A stretch of 64,000 nucleotides of DNA, taken from the IMG/VR virus record IMGVR_UViG_3300045988_168162, positions 64,001-128,000 of that record. One strand, given 5' to 3'. Origin of the DNA: a virus. Positions 41,301 to 49,100 of the stretch are shown in pieces. The notes under the pieces are model-generated. The model saw only the letters and a program-made list of their open reading frames with translations. It was not told the DNA's origin and did no database searches. Positions within the stretch are counted from its first letter, which is position 1, and each line of letters starts with the position of its first letter. A program made the translations under genes and the position numbers.

Positions 41301-42359
41301 GAGACGAGCTCGACTTATTCTAAGTTTTTGAGTGACGCCGGTAACCAGGCCAAGGAGTTGGGCGCCAGTGTTAGCGATGTGGTTAGCGCGACTGCCGACT
41401 TTGCCCGGCTTGGATATAACTTACAGGATGCCAATGAGATTGCCGAGTCTGCCATTATGTTTAACCGTGTTGGCGACGGCGTTTCTGATGTTAATGAGGC
41501 CAGCGAAGATATTATTTCGGCTATGAAGGCTTTTAATATCGAGGCCGAAAACAGTCAGCAAATCGTTGACAAATACAACGAGGTAGGTAATAATTATGCC
41601 ATCAGTTCGGCAGGTGTCGCGGACGCCTTGACTAGATCGGCCGCTGCACTGCATGCCGCCGGAAACGATATTAACCAATCTATTGGTATGATCGTAGCAG
41701 CCAATGATGTCGCCCAATCGCCCGAGCAGGTAGGAAATGCCTTAAAGGTACTTTCTTTACGTATTCGTGGAGCGACTACTGAACTTGAGGCCATGGGCGA
41801 AGATGCCGACGGAGCCGCGACCAGCACAGCAAAACTACAGGCTGAAATTAAGGCTTTGTCTGGCGTTAATATCATGAAGGATCGGGATACATTCAAATCT
41901 ACATACGAAATCTTGGATGAATTGGCTGATAAGTGGGATAGTCTAACTGACGTCTCCAAGGCCAGCATCCTGGAGGACCTTGCTGGCAAAAACCGCGCCA
42001 GTGTTGTAGCCGGTATGTTGGAAAACTGGGATGATGCCAAGAAAGCCATGGAGACAGCACAGAAAAGTGCAGGCAGCGCAGAAGCGGAGTTGGAGACAGC
42101 ATTGGATTCCGTGCAGGGCAAGCTCTCTCAGTTCCAAGCTACTTTTCAATCTTTTTCCGAGACCGTCCTCGATTCTGATTTAGTTAAAGGTATTATTGAT
42201 TTTGGTACAAGCGCACTAGATGCTGCAGATGGATTTACCAAATGGGCCGGAGTAATCCCGACCTTGACCGCAGCATTAAGTGCCTTTTTGTCGTTGTCTG
42301 GTACGAAGACTCAGGGCAGTATTCAGATGCTCGCTTACGCAGTAGGAATAGCTGCGTAG
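38307..42359 (+). CDS. tape measure protein, N-terminal part (contains a TP901-type core)
   Basis: AAGGAGG SD; long coiled coil; core region TELKKVTDETS...GYNLQDANEIAESAIMFNRVGDG...AGVADALTRSAAAL; ends in a hydrophobic segment. Confidence 0.8.
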   Translation: MAEDLNIKVKVTPDTSGVQGELNGQAGRFNLPVKVSLQNVADIQTQIQNIGKNIDVKVNLTMAQNGVKNQLNSLKNQKVDMQLFDTTKLTQELNKVSSAIEKAVSKIQIALSTKIDSTMKATASNVENLGKSFGTIQTRIDSIKNTGDKAKMQAGLDTAKKNYNNLIQLGTLTTEQFSGMATQLAMVNRQVLDIVASEKKLENQAARVAKINMRGDELIDSYNRGNADLKDVYDASAKKYRTKDDRNAKRRLDRQQNRISGLIQNFQNNPTTENFDLLSHEITMYERNSNDLQSTLRAEKKEWEDNEKAKQNAAKATAAVAKKTQEAQQKAEDARKKTASNLNQQFANSDFSDSQIKYFAAKNNGYSTADMKRYFASTDKWNIKLKSAISAFNNDPTEQNLKKLTTTYNGYITAKKKLDTSLTEEKSKWEKTAAGIKKSGEDLGKTYSALEQKKAKLDSTYTKKVEGTQFTNQAIEDLAKGQNGTTSIATLFTDAETAKKDFEKNMDSGSLARYKAAIEALTQALAKMDAELTVAAKSSDQFNSQMRAKQNKYSSEMTRLSQSGTDLQDLAIRTGHGNMVNSNTAEGVLWGEVSDASKEARTAMAEFDQKLDTNSLLKYEQALQHLKELLSQFRDELTKTITATNKMGDIKDTNAAQMSEYQKSLQELTARYNTAVASKQANGKDMGGLLVGTDLTAINDAYTKADQAKANFERDMNQTSLAAYKTAMAALAQEIRNLTSALDSADNSAEKAFSSLPTQMNAVEGTLKTLNDTYRAQQNRGKSDAGVESTIQLYTDVLKEMRQIEASGSNDYSQFTEMFKKFDSQLQASGININNFTDFMRAMNSVATQAKVSIGDLGNEFKQQQSIESLNKRLNNLLYTMERYVEINKKIQGNSDVMNQYNSVKSDIQSALRSTDGAFKESTLSKAAEGFSALKKQAQDLELEGKTLSQVFQNLFGQHFSTMVAMGALHLMQNSLQQVYQNVVDIDTAMTELKKVTDETSSTYSKFLSDAGNQAKELGASVSDVVSATADFARLGYNLQDANEIAESAIMFNRVGDGVSDVNEASEDIISAMKAFNIEAENSQQIVDKYNEVGNNYAISSAGVADALTRSAAALHAAGNDINQSIGMIVAANDVAQSPEQVGNALKVLSLRIRGATTELEAMGEDADGAATSTAKLQAEIKALSGVNIMKDRDTFKSTYEILDELADKWDSLTDVSKASILEDLAGKNRASVVAGMLENWDDAKKAMETAQKSAGSAEAELETALDSVQGKLSQFQATFQSFSETVLDSDLVKGIIDFGTSALDAADGFTKWAGVIPTLTAALSAFLSLSGTKTQGSIQMLAYAVGIAA

Positions 42360-42595
42360 GATGCAACCTGAGTCCTATTATAAATACCCAAACTGCTGGG
42401 AAAAGCTAAGAGCCGTGTGACCACAATAGGGGAATGATCCGCTATGACGGTGCCGAAAGGCAGAAACAACAACACGGATGCGATAAGCTGAGATAAAAGC
42501 TGCTATCGCGTAAGTTGACATAAGATATTAAAACTACGGGGCTTCGTGTAGTGCCAAGAACGAGGCGGTGATTGATTTGGAGGTGGAGGTGTGGT

Positions 42596-42856
42596 ATGAT
42601 TAAAGAAATAGCTCATAAGATGTGGAATAAAATACTTGTAAAACGAAATATATGGTGGTTGAACAAATACGGTGATGAGCTAAACAAAAAGTACAATGGT
42701 AAAATGCTTTTGATTGTGGATTGCGAAGTAGTTGCAGTTGGCTCATTTTTAAGTGACATGCCGCATAACAATGAACCTGGGGCACTGTACTGCCAAACAA
42801 AGATTGTTGATCCGTATAGGTATTTTGATTTTAGTAAGAAAACTTCTAAACCATAA
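42596..42856 (+). CDS. hypothetical protein (86 aa), first gene of the island
   Basis: GGAGGTGGAGG SD; 15 nt before the next gene. Confidence 0.45.
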   Translation: MIKEIAHKMWNKILVKRNIWWLNKYGDELNKKYNGKMLLIVDCEVVAVGSFLSDMPHNNEPGALYCQTKIVDPYRYFDFSKKTSKP

Positions 42857-42870
42857 AGGAGTAAATAAAA

Positions 42871-46060: not shown

Positions 46061-46102
46061 GATAATCCCTCCGTCCCAAACACAAATTATAACCTTACAA
46101 CG

Positions 46103-46111
46103 ATTATATCA
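46103..46111 (-). promoter_or_regulatory. extended -10 (TGATATAAT) for the minus-strand three-gene operon
   Basis: The reverse complement of ATTATATCA lies about 45 nt upstream of the 46060 start; the -35 is weak. Confidence 0.35.
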
Positions 46112-46122
46112 CACTACTATCG

Positions 46123-49100
46123 TTGGAACAAGTGATCTTGAATCTTTTGAATATGTTTGGTACTGGTAAGAATGTCAACACTGGCAATACATATATGACA
46201 TTCTTGGGTAAGGAAGCATTGACTGCTCGTGATGATGTTAAAGCCGTCATTAACGAAGTCGAAAAGCTAAAGAATGCTGCCGGCCAAAGTATCTCTATTA
46301 ACGATACTGCTGGAATTTGGGGCGCGTTTTTGCTTGGAAAGAACAATCAGAATTATGACTTTTCAAAAAGCTTAGGCAACGACATAATTGCTCTACGGGC
46401 ATACCTGGATGACGTAACGAATAAGGGGATGTCTGCGGCGGATGCCTTAAATGATGTACAGGTATCTGTATCTGGTACAACGGTTGAATTTGAAGATTTT
46501 GCTAAGAGTATAGACACTACAGGCATGCATTTTGACCAAGCGGCCTCTATTTATATTCCTGCATTTATAAAGCAACTGACCAGTGCCGTCACAATTACAA
46601 CGGTAATGAAGGGCGTCCTCAAAGGGCTTGTTGGCATTATTGGAAATCTTGCCGTTGCTGCCGTTGCATCTTTGGCTATGGGTGCATTGATAAAAGCTGC
46701 AGAAAAGGCTGGCGAAGTTCTTCATAATTTCAAAGATAATACTTTCGGAAAATCTCTTGAAGAACAAAAAGAGCAGATTGACGAAATGGGGCAGGCACTG
46801 GACAATACGGCCAGCTCTATTGATTCCTACAAATCAAAAATTACAGACCTGAAAGATTCTATCGACAGTGGCACACTCAGTGAGCAGGAAGCTTATCAGG
46901 CACGCAAGGATCTGCTAGAAATACAGGATGAGCTGATTCAAAAATATCCTGAAGAAGCGTCTGGTATTGATCTGCTAAATGGCAGTCTGGAAACACAACT
47001 CGACTTGTTAAATGGTATTACTGAGGCAAAAGCTCGTGCTTATCTCTCTGAAAATAATGATATAATTCAGAAATCTTATGAGGAGATGACAAAGCAGCGC
47101 ACCTATAAATCTACCGGCTTTGATAATTATCTTGAAGCTGATAGCAATGACATGTCTGAAATCGAAAAGATTGCTCAGAAATATGCGGACAAAGGACTGG
47201 CATTTGCTCAATATGGTTCTGAAAAGAATGGTAAGGCGCGTTACGATATTGAAGTGACTGCGGATGTTTCGCAGGCCAAAGATGCTATTGATGATTTTTA
47301 TAACGACGTACAAAAAAGTAATCTTATAAGTGACGATGCAAAAGAAGCCTTATCTTCTCGTTTGTCGCAGTGGAGCAATGAAGCAAAAGGCATAGTTGAC
47401 GAGTATGGTGATTACGCAAAACAAGCGGCCAAGTATGAAATTCAACTGAATGACACTTGGTCCAAGACTTACTCCGACCTTGAAGAAGCCCAGGAAACCT
47501 ACAATGATGCCGTTGCCAAGAATGACGATAAGGCCATTGCGGCGGCACTGAAAAAGGTCAAGGCCGCTCAGGACGAATTTGCCAATACTGATATTGACAA
47601 TAGCTTTGTGCAGCAGTATATGCAGGCGCAGGCGGATCAGTTGGACAGTGCTACGAAACTACAGGCTGTTCAGGCCGGACTTTCTGAAACCTTTAAGGGT
47701 ACCACCTCCAACTACAAGTCTCTGAATGATTATCTTGATGTTACAGATCACAAAGCTGAACAGCTTACCGACAGTATCACTTATAATCTGAATGAACTTA
47801 AAGGTCTGGATGATATTGATATCCTTAACATTGGCAGCCTCGAAAAAGCAGGATCTGCATCTAAAAATTATACAGACGAACAAATTGCCTCGTATAATCG
47901 TTTAAAAGGCGTAGCAGATCAGCTTGGCGTTTCCATGGATGACCTAATTGATATTTTTGTCAAGATTGGTCTCGTAACTAGCGACAATATCAAGTATACC
48001 AACGAGTTTACCAGCTCCGCGTTGACCATGGCAACTGCAGCTAGCAAGGCTATATCCAGTGTTACTTCTATCCTGAATTCGCAGGGAACTGGCGTTAATG
48101 TTGATGCCGATTCTTACAGCGAACTGATCAAGGATAATGCTGAATACGCGGCCGCACTGCAATACAGCAACGGCACCATGCAGCTGAACCGCGAGATGGC
48201 ACAGCAGCTTACCGAAGCAAAAGTAAAAGAGTCTGAGGCTTATATCAAGGTGGCTTACAGCCAGAACCAGGTCAAGTATGAGAAGGTTAAGAATGACCTA
48301 TCCTATTACACAGATGAAGTTCGTAAATCCATAGAAGCTGACGCAGACAAGTTGAAGCAGTTTGACGAAGAAAAGGCTGCACTGGAAAGCCAGAGCCAAG
48401 CACTTCGTGACAATTGCCGTAGTTTGCAGATGCAGTACTCGGCTTTGATGCAGGCGAGTAGTGCCTACCAGGATTGGTTGAACGCACAGAATGCTACTGA
48501 ATCCGGCGACATGTACGACAGCGCCATTGAAGCAAAGAAAGCTTTGGCCGAAGGACTGAAGAACGGCAAAATTGGCACGGTCAAGTGGCAGGCTGCTTCC
48601 GAGTTTTTGATCCCGGATGACTACGAGGGGACAGCTGCTGAATACATCAAGAAATTGAATCGCTACTTTAAGCAGGCCAGCGATGGTTCTGATGATGGTT
48701 CCGGCATCAACAACTTTATCACGGATAGCCTGAAGGCCGGGCTGATGAAGCAAGAGAGTGATGGCTCTATTAAGATCCTGGCAGACAAGACCACGGAAGA
48801 TTTTGCAAAAGAGCTGAAACTTTCGCCAGATGCTGTGCAATCTATCTTTGGTGAGATGCAGGAGTATGGCTGGACCTTTGACTGGGGCAGCATGCTTGGC
48901 GACCCAATCACTAACTATAAAATGCAGCTGGACGACATTAAAGACCAGATGGCAGACCTTGAGCCGGATAGTGAAGCGTGGCAGGTTCTGGATGCCAGGG
49001 CAGAAGAGTTAGAGAGTGCTCTGGATGGGCTGTACCAGCGCAGCGGACTTGACCAGCTTGCCGATACGGTACAGCAAGCGAAAGACAATGGCGTTGAGCT

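Follow-up and report, generated by a model that had tools for sequence, protein, structure and literature searches.

How does a phage produce a functional tape measure when the gene for it lies in two pieces, separated by an island of other genes on both strands? The question is raised by a 64,000-nucleotide (nt) stretch of viral DNA (positions 64,001 to 128,000 of IMG/VR record IMGVR_UViG_3300045988_168162), which is called the window here and is numbered from its first letter. An earlier note on this DNA had described the split tape measure gene and named two polypeptides, excision of the island and splicing as possible solutions. Judged from the sequence of the window and its relatives, the evidence supports splicing: the tape measure is probably encoded by one gene, interrupted by a group I (self-splicing) intron at 42336..46134. 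The anatomy of this element, its conservation and the compatibility of the flanking reading frames can be read from the DNA itself, and it is from these that we infer the splicing. The gene would be composed as follows (aa, amino acids).

38307..42335, plus strand: proposed exon 1, 1343 aa from ATG 38307, ending ...GSIQMLA at a codon boundary; matches PhageMin_Tail and phrog_4211.
42336..46134, plus strand: proposed group I intron, 3799 nt including all cargo, with a conserved core, tested helices and an in-frame join.
46135..51918, plus strand: proposed exon 2, 1927 aa plus stop, starting ILNLLNMFGTGK; matches phrog_4211 and shows codon-position bias.

The reading frame of the first open reading frame (ORF1) extends over 38268..42359, and ATG 38307, with AAGGAGG upstream, is its credible start. 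PhageMin_Tail (PF10145) occupies residues 1026-1240 of ORF1 (E 2e-25, above the Pfam cut-off), and the end of ORF1 is a hydrophobic stretch, in agreement with the tape measure core and hydrophobic end that had been assigned to 38307..42359. The second open reading frame (ORF2) is 46123..51918, in a frame that opens at 46093. On the phrog_4211 profile ORF1 covers positions 561-939 and ORF2 positions 924-1706, and, the positions being consecutive, both ORFs are collinear with one protein family. By this collinearity and the Pfam match, a single tape measure protein is encoded in two pieces, ORF1 and ORF2 (to 51918), which are 3.8 kb apart, and the earlier claim of a single split gene stands. The gene is of the TP901 type, as it carries PF10145 and follows homologues of YomU (tube) and YomN; its full length, 1343 + 1927 = 3270 aa in the computed spliced product, needs the proposed splicing. 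As a separate observation, the N-terminal coiled-coil region (window 38268-39220) differs in length by ~300 residues between close relatives: part 1 in loci L039-L041 has only 1046 aa, against 1343-1363 aa in the window, though its last 300 residues are 100% identical.

Relatives with an uninterrupted tape measure, for which the earlier note had proposed to look, do exist. When the first 500 residues of exon 2 were used in an exhaustive HMMER search, 805 relatives were retrieved. In some of them the exon-2 region is N-terminal in a protein of ~2,000 aa, split like that of the window, and in many others exon 2 begins at an internal position (residues ~800-1200) of a protein of 2,800-3,080 aa, homologues of that size aligning straight across the join. 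The protein P0130 (2,820 aa) forms a single BLASTP segment over spliced residues 935-1997 (33% identity, E 1e-130), which spans the join at spliced residues 1356/1357. P0135, P0162 and P0209 also align across the join, and the local alignments of the last two have gaps of 0 to 2 residues there. In IMG/VR, the tape measure is uninterrupted at L012, L018 and L030.

The phage, which comes from human gut samples, is SPbeta-like and has members of the YonB, YomW, YomV, YomU and YomN families; its more distant relatives are Lachnospiraceae prophages. Scanning IMG/VR with the C-terminal part of ORF1 gave 35 loci, the closest with ~62% protein identity. In the closest relatives part 1 ends at exactly the same residue and with the same tail, Y-A-x-G-I-A-A-stop, and an ORF of ~2,000 aa resumes 1.9 to 4.2 kb downstream of it. 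When the predicted spliced junction was used in a protein search, the best 120 matches all covered the exon-1 half only and stopped at this site, ~85 of them ending in the same tail as part 1 of the window; no intron-less allele was present among these 120, and the predicted intron-less or spliced junction had no exact match in IMG/VR. These comparisons indicate that the split arrangement is no recent insertion and that a large clade of SPbeta-like gut phages has conserved it. Among GenBank phage records, a single irrelevant short match was the only one to the region. The same split of the tape measure is seen in L101, L102 and L104, which are prophages of cultured Lachnospiraceae. Strains with related split prophages are Enterocloster lavalensis KCTC 15153, [Clostridium] asparagiforme DSM 15981 and Lacrimispora sp. 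HJ-01.

The boundaries of the proposed intron can be placed from both sides. At the 5' side the RNA would form the following hairpin (A1 is an alignment of the cargo-free versions of 12 loci).

42334-42343 / 42351-42360, plus strand: P1 hairpin, 9-10 bp, with a U42335.G42359 wobble; its pairs are invariant in A1.

From the single U.G wobble of P1, exon 1 would end with U42335, the 5' splice site then coinciding with a codon boundary (...QMLA). The hairpin does not vary among the 12 sequences of A1, and L038 and L093 show a compensatory change from C-G to U-A. The last codon of exon 1, GCT in the window, is GCT, ACT or TTT depending on the lineage and always ends in U. The segment 42336-42359 doubles as a pseudo-tail, YAVGIAA plus TAG, and the suspicion that the last codons of part 1 (Y-A-V-G-I-A-A-stop) derive from the element proved correct. 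Two other placements of the 5' site were discarded: after U42336 (phase 1), where relatives have no G at the matching 3' position, and after U42353, where no conserved guide sequence is found. At the 3' side, protein conservation starts at I-L-(N/T), and the preceding base is always G (G46134 in the window). The triplet before exon 2 is AAG, TTG, CTG, GTG, TGG, CAG or TAG, its first two bases varying and its third being G throughout. Joining 42335 to 46135 (phase 0 to phase 0) is in frame in 14/14 loci with both junctions located. The ligated RNA would read ...CAGATGCTCGCT then ATCTTGAATC... (CAGATGCTCGCT/ATCTTGAATCTT in the window type), and the protein ...GSIQMLA/ILNLLNMFGTGK..., with TQGSIQMLAILNLLNMFGTGK as the predicted junction peptide. 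The likeness between TCTGGTACGAAG (42297-42308) and TTTGGTACTGGTAAG (46156-46170), which had been taken for the footprint of an insertion, is present in the window but missing in relatives with differing exons; as the two lie 27 nt upstream and 22 nt downstream of the inferred junctions, the likeness is treated as coincidence.

Could part 2 be translated by itself? TTG 46123, GTG 46132 and ATG 46153 all lack a motif resembling a Shine-Dalgarno (SD) sequence, and AGGAGG-type sites precede most neighbouring structural genes. The absence of an SD at TTG 46123 and ATG 46153 and the opening of the frame at 46093 had been correctly observed, whereas the clear SD ascribed to every other structural gene holds for most neighbours. 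No in-frame ATG, GTG or TTG is found upstream of the 3' splice site in L002, L004, L008 and L093; in L007 and L025 the frame of part 2 opens 9 nt upstream of exon 2, and in L148 an in-frame TAG stands directly before it. In the first 24 codons of exon 2, differences among the relatives compared are distributed over the codon positions as 119/46/280, with 174 synonymous changes, and from this pattern exon 2 is translated in frame from its first codon. On these sequence features, part 2 cannot be a conserved stand-alone gene.

These data bear directly on a shorter, conventional intron, whose 3' splice site would lie after G43537 and whose exon 2 would be UUA UAA (Leu-stop), part 2 being a separate gene and the tape measure a pair of polypeptides. 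The core described below plus the ORF pair in its loop (~1.2 kb) has the size typical of ORF-bearing phage introns; AAGG/TTATAA (slash, splice site) is exact in all copies examined but L091 and gives the in-frame stop; a terminator follows soon after the core (immediately in L002); and the window and some relatives have GTG, TTG or ATG near the start of part 2. Such a gene would, however, face the missing SD and the missing or blocked starts just described, although its coding constraint begins at the first codon and it is intact, with ~1,900-2,300 aa, at every locus that reaches its end. Translational coupling is impossible because the gene upstream of part 2 is on the opposite strand. Moreover, the shorter intron leaves unexplained the invariant G before exon 2 and the conservation, immediately upstream of part 2, of a complement to the end of the core, and the homologues are single proteins of ~3,000 aa. 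We regard it as unlikely.

The reading of a single long intron depends further on the RNA enclosed between the two splice sites, the core of which would be folded from two separate blocks.

42385..42532, plus strand: 5' half of the core; P3 5' strand 42385-42389, P4 5' strand 42393-42399, P5 domain with sub-helices.
42499-42519, plus strand: 5' arm of the P5 extension, seen in the constrained RNAalifold fold, the pair counts and inverted repeat I1.
43327..43533, plus strand: 3' half of the core; 3' arm of the P5 extension, P4' 43386-43392, P6/P6a/P6b 43394-43447.
Same half continued, plus strand: P7 43455-43460 / 43504-43509, P3' 43463-43467, P8 43469-43496, P9 43516-43532.

The non-coding core is 84-95% identical to that of relatives whose flanking protein is only ~62% identical. 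Window positions 42327-42521 plus 43290-43543 match a contiguous block of ~470 nt in L001 and L002; in the window the block is broken by two ORFs within a 33-nt inverted repeat, I1 (42500-42532 / 43327-43359). In the RNAalifold fold of A1, P4 and P7 were imposed as constraints and P3 was entered as a pseudoknot. In the explicit P1-P9 structure with the P3/P7 pseudoknot, 98.5% of the cells of A1 are paired, compared with 30-40% when the 3' partners are slid by 1-3 columns, and 0/500 shuffles reach the observed pairing or covariation score, these controls being flattered by the derivation of the structure from the same sequences as were counted. Compensatory double changes occur at 7 pairs of A1, of which P6 contributes three and a P5 sub-helix, the P5 extension, P6a and P9 one each. 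A first assignment of P6, CCGGAG/CUCUGG, was dropped and replaced by the longer covarying helix CGGAGACCC/GGGUUUCUG. As P3, P4 and P7 have no compensatory variation, covariation neither supports nor contradicts those helices, and in the folded model the catalytic core rests on topology and motifs. Motifs resembling P, Q, R and S are read in the sequence (AAAYUGCUGGGAAARG or AAACUGCUGGGAAAAG, AAUCAGCAGC, GUUCAUCGACUGUA, AAGACAGUCAGAAC); their comparison with the general consensus sequences constitutes a lead, not a formal test.

The exact 23-nt core sequence is found in 57 IMG/VR stretches, nearly all of them phage contigs of 38-233 kb, and in 29/29 copies with captured 5' flank (14 + 15 more) it lies at the same tape-measure junction, with none of the dispersal of an IStron (see below). 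No copy lacking cargo occurs in IMG/VR, and a search for cargo-less copies in JGI metagenomes gave 49 pattern matches, about the chance expectation, none with the core. On one 233 kb contig, IMGVR_UViG_3300045988_152590, the exact intron core is present twice (L141, L145), which could reflect either a concatemeric assembly or two copies in one genome.

The structured RNA could also be a relic of an intron, or an RNA of another kind, two proteins supplying the tape measure function and no splicing taking place. The lack of an Rfam group I match and of a known intron-less allele would agree with this, and the split is found throughout the clade, as is expected of two ordinary genes. In an inactive relic, 84-95% identity of the core would nevertheless not be expected next to exons that have fallen to 62%, nor would compensation in P1, P5, P6 and P9, U at the end of three different codons and G at the end of seven triplets. 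The problems with start codons and SD are those of the shorter intron. We consider an element that does not splice very unlikely.

If the intron extends to 46134, its 3' splice site lies far from the core, and a second pair of elements appears suited to bring it back.

43534..43546, plus strand: closing stem 5' strand, AAGGTTATAATTT, pairing with 46084-46096; inverted repeat I14.
46084..46134, plus strand: 3' tail, made up of the closing stem 3' strand (46084-46096), the tail and the terminal G46134.

The stem is AU-rich, its strands being 13 nt long and 100% complementary in the window; with 9-13 bp it encloses an island of 2.5 kb, and the 3' splice site follows 46084-46096 after ~40 nt. Of the copies examined, only L091 deviates from AAGGTTATA, and the complement of this sequence is found upstream of part 2 in all relatives examined. 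In L004 the extension of the stem is altered yet still complementary, and in L001 a U-A pair of the stem is changed to U.G, which is tolerated only in plus-strand RNA.

The same inverted repeat, of 10-13 bp on both sides of the cargo, might suggest a rearrangement of the DNA, in which the island is excised or inverted at inverted repeats before late expression and the gene is restored. Inversion, however, would not restore the frame, and the island has no flanking direct repeats (chance-level matches only) and no detected recombinase. The gene of a Zn-ribbon protein in the island has the same orientation in every relative, and no assembled IMG/VR contig holds an excised junction. A rearrangement is scarcely credible.

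The stem also resembles the intermolecular helix used by split introns. Hence splicing could occur in trans, an RNA with exon 1 and the core ending at the terminator inside the intron and a second RNA, started within the cargo and carrying the 3' strand of the closing stem, the tail and exon 2, being joined to it via the 9-13 bp stem. The strong plus-strand terminator after the core would fit, and antisense transcription of the cargo would hinder a continuous plus-strand transcript. However, the promoter scan found no plus-strand promoter upstream of 46084, an AU-rich helix of 9-13 bp offers little strength for the assembly of two molecules, and read-through by a polymerase of the YonO type is simpler. 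Natural trans-spliced group I introns are known only from organelles, which also counts against the possibility. Splicing in trans is quite unlikely.

In the cis-splicing mechanism that we propose for the single long intron, late transcription, probably by the YonO-type RNA polymerase of the phage, would cross the whole interval. The ribozyme core would be assembled from the two blocks 42336-42532 and 43327-43533, joined by the long stem of the P5 extension, and the AU-rich stem 43534-43546 / 46084-46096 would bring the 3' splice site to the core, looping out the 2.5-kb island. Exon 1 (ending at U42335) would then be ligated to exon 2 (starting at A46135), giving the tape measure of 3270 aa, with a mass of about 360 kDa. 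Catalysis, read-through of the terminator and splicing in cis rather than in trans would all be required. The genes of the island would be passengers in the loops of the intron, with host-type promoters and terminators of their own, and the essential gene would be undamaged. The polymerase is encoded in the window at 16669..19245 and is a YonO-type single-chain two-barrel enzyme of 858 aa (Pfam RdRP, E 2e-11). YonO is highly processive, has no flap domain, which hairpin-dependent termination needs, and transcribes the late genes of SPbeta as one operon (PMC5467207). Read-through of the terminator at 43697-43724 is plausible because the phage encodes such a polymerase. Few tape measure molecules are needed per virion, so that inefficient splicing could suffice.

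Several points weigh against a group I intron of this extent. Besides the flattered controls, P3 and P7 are invariant and P4 varies only from C-G to U.G, so that the catalytic core is not aided by covariation either way. P1 pairs only two exon nucleotides, which is short for holding the 5' exon, and no convincing P2 or P10 was found; the candidate pairings of P10 with the L1 loop, UCUU/AGGA in the window and UAUU/AAUA in L002, are too short to count. The Rfam group I model (RF00028) has no match at E<=1 on the window, and Rfam has none at E<=10 on the compact core of L002; at gathering thresholds it also found nothing on seven other loci. A textbook-looking intron at the same site in L013, used as a control, reaches RF00028 with only 16.8 bits (E 0.07, a weak and partial match), which argues that the silence of Rfam on the element reflects low sensitivity and not absence. 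Inside the intron there is a strong plus-strand intrinsic terminator (43697-43724), with antisense transcription converging on it. The conserved motifs of the 3' tail can be explained by an antisense promoter and not by RNA structure. Finally, neither ancestral state is documented, as no cargo-less copy and no intron-less allele was found.

As to this promoter, the minus strand of the tail reads as an extended -10, TGATATAAT (the reverse complement of 46103-46111), at a spacing of 17 nt from a -35, TTGTTC (the reverse complement of 46126-46131). In our interpretation the tail, read on the minus strand, would be the promoter of the antisense operon of the island, overlapping the 3' splice site. 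The conserved ATTATATCACAC and CAACA had been considered as RNA contacts, pairing with the GUGUGA loop of P6b, and were rejected, since they show no covariation and the antisense -10/-35 fits better.

What, then, does the intron carry? The gap contains seven ORFs, distributed over both strands.

42572/42598..42856, plus strand: small protein ORF, in the P5-extension loop.
42871..43299, plus strand: retropepsin-like aspartic protease, 142 aa, with DTG and IIGMD motifs, in the P5-extension loop.
43547..46083, both strands: cargo island, inside the closing stem.
43561-43724, plus strand: unit bounded by a promoter (43561-43589) and a terminator (43697-43724).
43845..44177, plus strand: HTH regulator, with a consensus promoter at 43774-43802.
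44249..44407, plus strand: 52-aa ORF.
44387..45046, minus strand: 219-aa protein, antisense operon.
45068..45610, minus strand: two-Zn-ribbon protein, antisense operon.
45629..46060, minus strand: membrane protein, antisense operon.

Promoters in the gap match the consensus at 12/12 positions (43774-43802) and 11/12 (43561-43589), and strong terminators are present at 43697-43724 (plus strand) and 44225-44198 (minus strand). The features on both strands with promoters and terminators of their own, reported earlier, are therefore confirmed, their number being seven ORFs instead of eight features. The interrupting accessory island is likewise real; it is not a simple insertion but would sit in peripheral loops of the group I intron 42336..46134. 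The protease matches Pfam gag-asp_proteas/Asp_protease_2 below the curated cut-offs, and PADLOC PDC-M08B, a candidate defence family, with E 1e-7; this weak link is the one lead to a function of the cargo. The unit 43561-43724 has an 11/12 promoter (TTGACA-17-TATTAT with TG) followed ~110 nt on by the strong terminator, with no ORF between them, and is possibly a small RNA gene within the cargo. At 43576, AGGTGTGGTATTAT resembles the start region of the ORF in the P5 loop (42587), as if it were a remnant of the protease module left at its alternative position.

The cargo is highly variable. Between phages whose part 1 is 100% identical, the genes in the island's right half differ. In the copies measured the cargo is 1.3-3.0 kb long; the complete intron takes up 1.9 kb in L002, ~4.9 kb, with 11 called genes, in L093 and >8 kb in L038. 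The pair of small protein and retropepsin is in the P5 loop in the window, in the loop on the P9 side in L001 and L004, and missing in L002, L007, L008 and L028; thus, changing loops or being duplicated or absent according to the phage, it behaves like an independently mobile module. The copy of L001 is at 11749-12428 and the duplicates of L038 are at 10988-11720 and 13612-14300. In the relatives examined with tblastn (L001, L002, L003, L004, L007, L025, L028) the only constant passenger is the antisense two-Zn-ribbon protein, adjoining the 3' splice site. It has a conserved C-terminal module, CPxCxS..KIS..FGIFS..HCNxCGYEW; no nuclease motif was detected in it, and as it has no PDB relative it could still be a novel nuclease. 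Searches of the island ORFs against Pfam, PHROGs and NCBIfam revealed no LAGLIDADG, GIY-YIG, HNH, His-Cys, PD-(D/E)xK or other nuclease family, and no transposase domain in any of them.

Group I introns have been described at three sites (IVS1-3) in the tape measure genes of Bacillus cereus group prophages (Tourasse & Kolsto 2008, PMC2504315). The interruption of a tape measure by a group I intron is already known, and the new feature is the cargo; in the literature no description was found of an intron whose multi-gene island is hypervariable, is transcribed autonomously and has an antisense operon. As with IVS1-3, a gene may have several insertion sites, since L010 has a second, endonuclease-bearing intron elsewhere. 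Unlike IVS1-3, the element described here carries a hypervariable island of several genes, which has promoters and terminators of its own and an antisense operon and in which no recognisable homing endonuclease was detected, its size ranges from 1.9 to >8 kb, and no intron-less allele was found in the present clade. The second intron, at 10637-11950 in L010 and also present in L009, is an additional insertion of 1.3 kb in part 1, corresponding to ORF1 ~1156/1159 of the window. It has a canonical S element, AATATATAGTCTGAAC, and its ORF encodes a protein that has several Zn-fingers and whose C-terminus is nuclease-like; by these motifs it is a classical endonuclease-bearing group I intron, absent from the window.

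In architecture, IStrons are the closest analogue of the element. IStrons (CdISt1, BcISt1) combine a group I ribozyme with an IS200/IS605 element, and their cargo is downstream of P9.2, flanked by inverted repeats that fold into a stem-loop rich in AU (PMC4227781). Both have the ribozyme on the 5' side, cargo downstream of P9 within an AU-rich inverted-repeat stem and the 3' splice site kilobases away from the core, the whole composite being, or here to be, spliced out. In contrast to IStrons, the island contains neither TnpA nor TnpB, its cargo varies between otherwise identical phages and is in part antisense, the element occupies one fixed site in one gene instead of being dispersed, and the P7.1/P7.2 hairpins of IStron ribozymes are missing from its core. 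Classical phage group I introns (T4 td/nrdB/sunY, SPbeta bnrdE/F, Twort) have homing endonuclease genes in their peripheral loops. The element shares with them ORFs looped from peripheral helices (P5 extension, P9 side), a conserved essential host gene and the R/S-type motifs GUUCA..GACU and AGUC.GAAC; it differs in that the loop ORFs encode a small protein and a retropepsin-like protease that shift between loops, and in the additional multi-gene island. With morons and other accessory hotspots of temperate phages it has in common autonomously transcribed passengers in a late operon, with content that differs between near-identical phages, whereas the hotspot would lie inside an intron of an essential structural gene and not between genes.

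The site itself has been occupied repeatedly. Other SPbeta-like phages (L011, L013, L017, L020, L021, L024, L026, L027, L034 and L036, with L011/L027, L013, L034 and L036 as the types) have at least 4 different group I-like elements at the same site, directly behind the tape measure's hydrophobic segment, and these elements carry textbook Q/R/S motifs. By this sequence evidence the tape measure site is a hotspot for introns. The intron of L027 is a different one, and it too is followed by an antisense Zn-ribbon gene (11560-11883, minus strand) and by a part 2, of 2,305 aa, that has no SD, so that at least two apparently unrelated introns at the same site each have an antisense Zn-ribbon gene.

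Whether a rapidly exchanging island with host-type promoters, one of them antisense, has found a safe harbour in a self-splicing intron of an essential structural gene, from whose late read-through transcript it is removed by splicing, is a matter on which our opinion is evenly divided. In this reading the arrangement would be fixed in a widespread clade of SPbeta-like phages of Lachnospiraceae in the human gut. The island may be active in the lysogen or early in infection, and, as its cargo includes a protease related to a candidate defence family, it could be a hotspot of defence or counter-defence. If the intron model is right, phage group I introns can carry kilobases of autonomously expressed passengers, beyond a homing endonuclease or a transposon, and the intron would be a neutral landing pad in an essential gene, a new type of accessory-gene hotspot for the mining of defence and anti-defence functions. 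The tape measures of this abundant gut-phage clade would be mis-annotated as two genes, the true products having 3,000-4,000 aa, which bears on the inference of tail length. The model would also raise the questions of how a ribozyme reaches a 3' splice site at a distance of 2.5 to >7 kb, how it deals with terminators inside the intron and with convergent antisense transcription, and whether it is a YonO-type polymerase that allows all this.

Two features of the window outside the intron deserve mention. A TnpB of the IS605 family (OrfB_IS605, Cas12f1-like TNB, HTH_OrfB_IS605) is encoded at 13290..14399 in the early region, 29 kb from the intron. Downstream of the tape measure stop, a consensus-like promoter at 52361-52389 is followed after ~100 nt by a terminator (~52469-52500) and converges on a minus-strand gene for a hydrophobic peptide of ~30 aa (~52600..52508); a promoter-like site belonging to this gene is located near 52790-52760. 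Type I toxin-antitoxin modules are known from SPbeta, and the arrangement at 52361-52800 looks like one.

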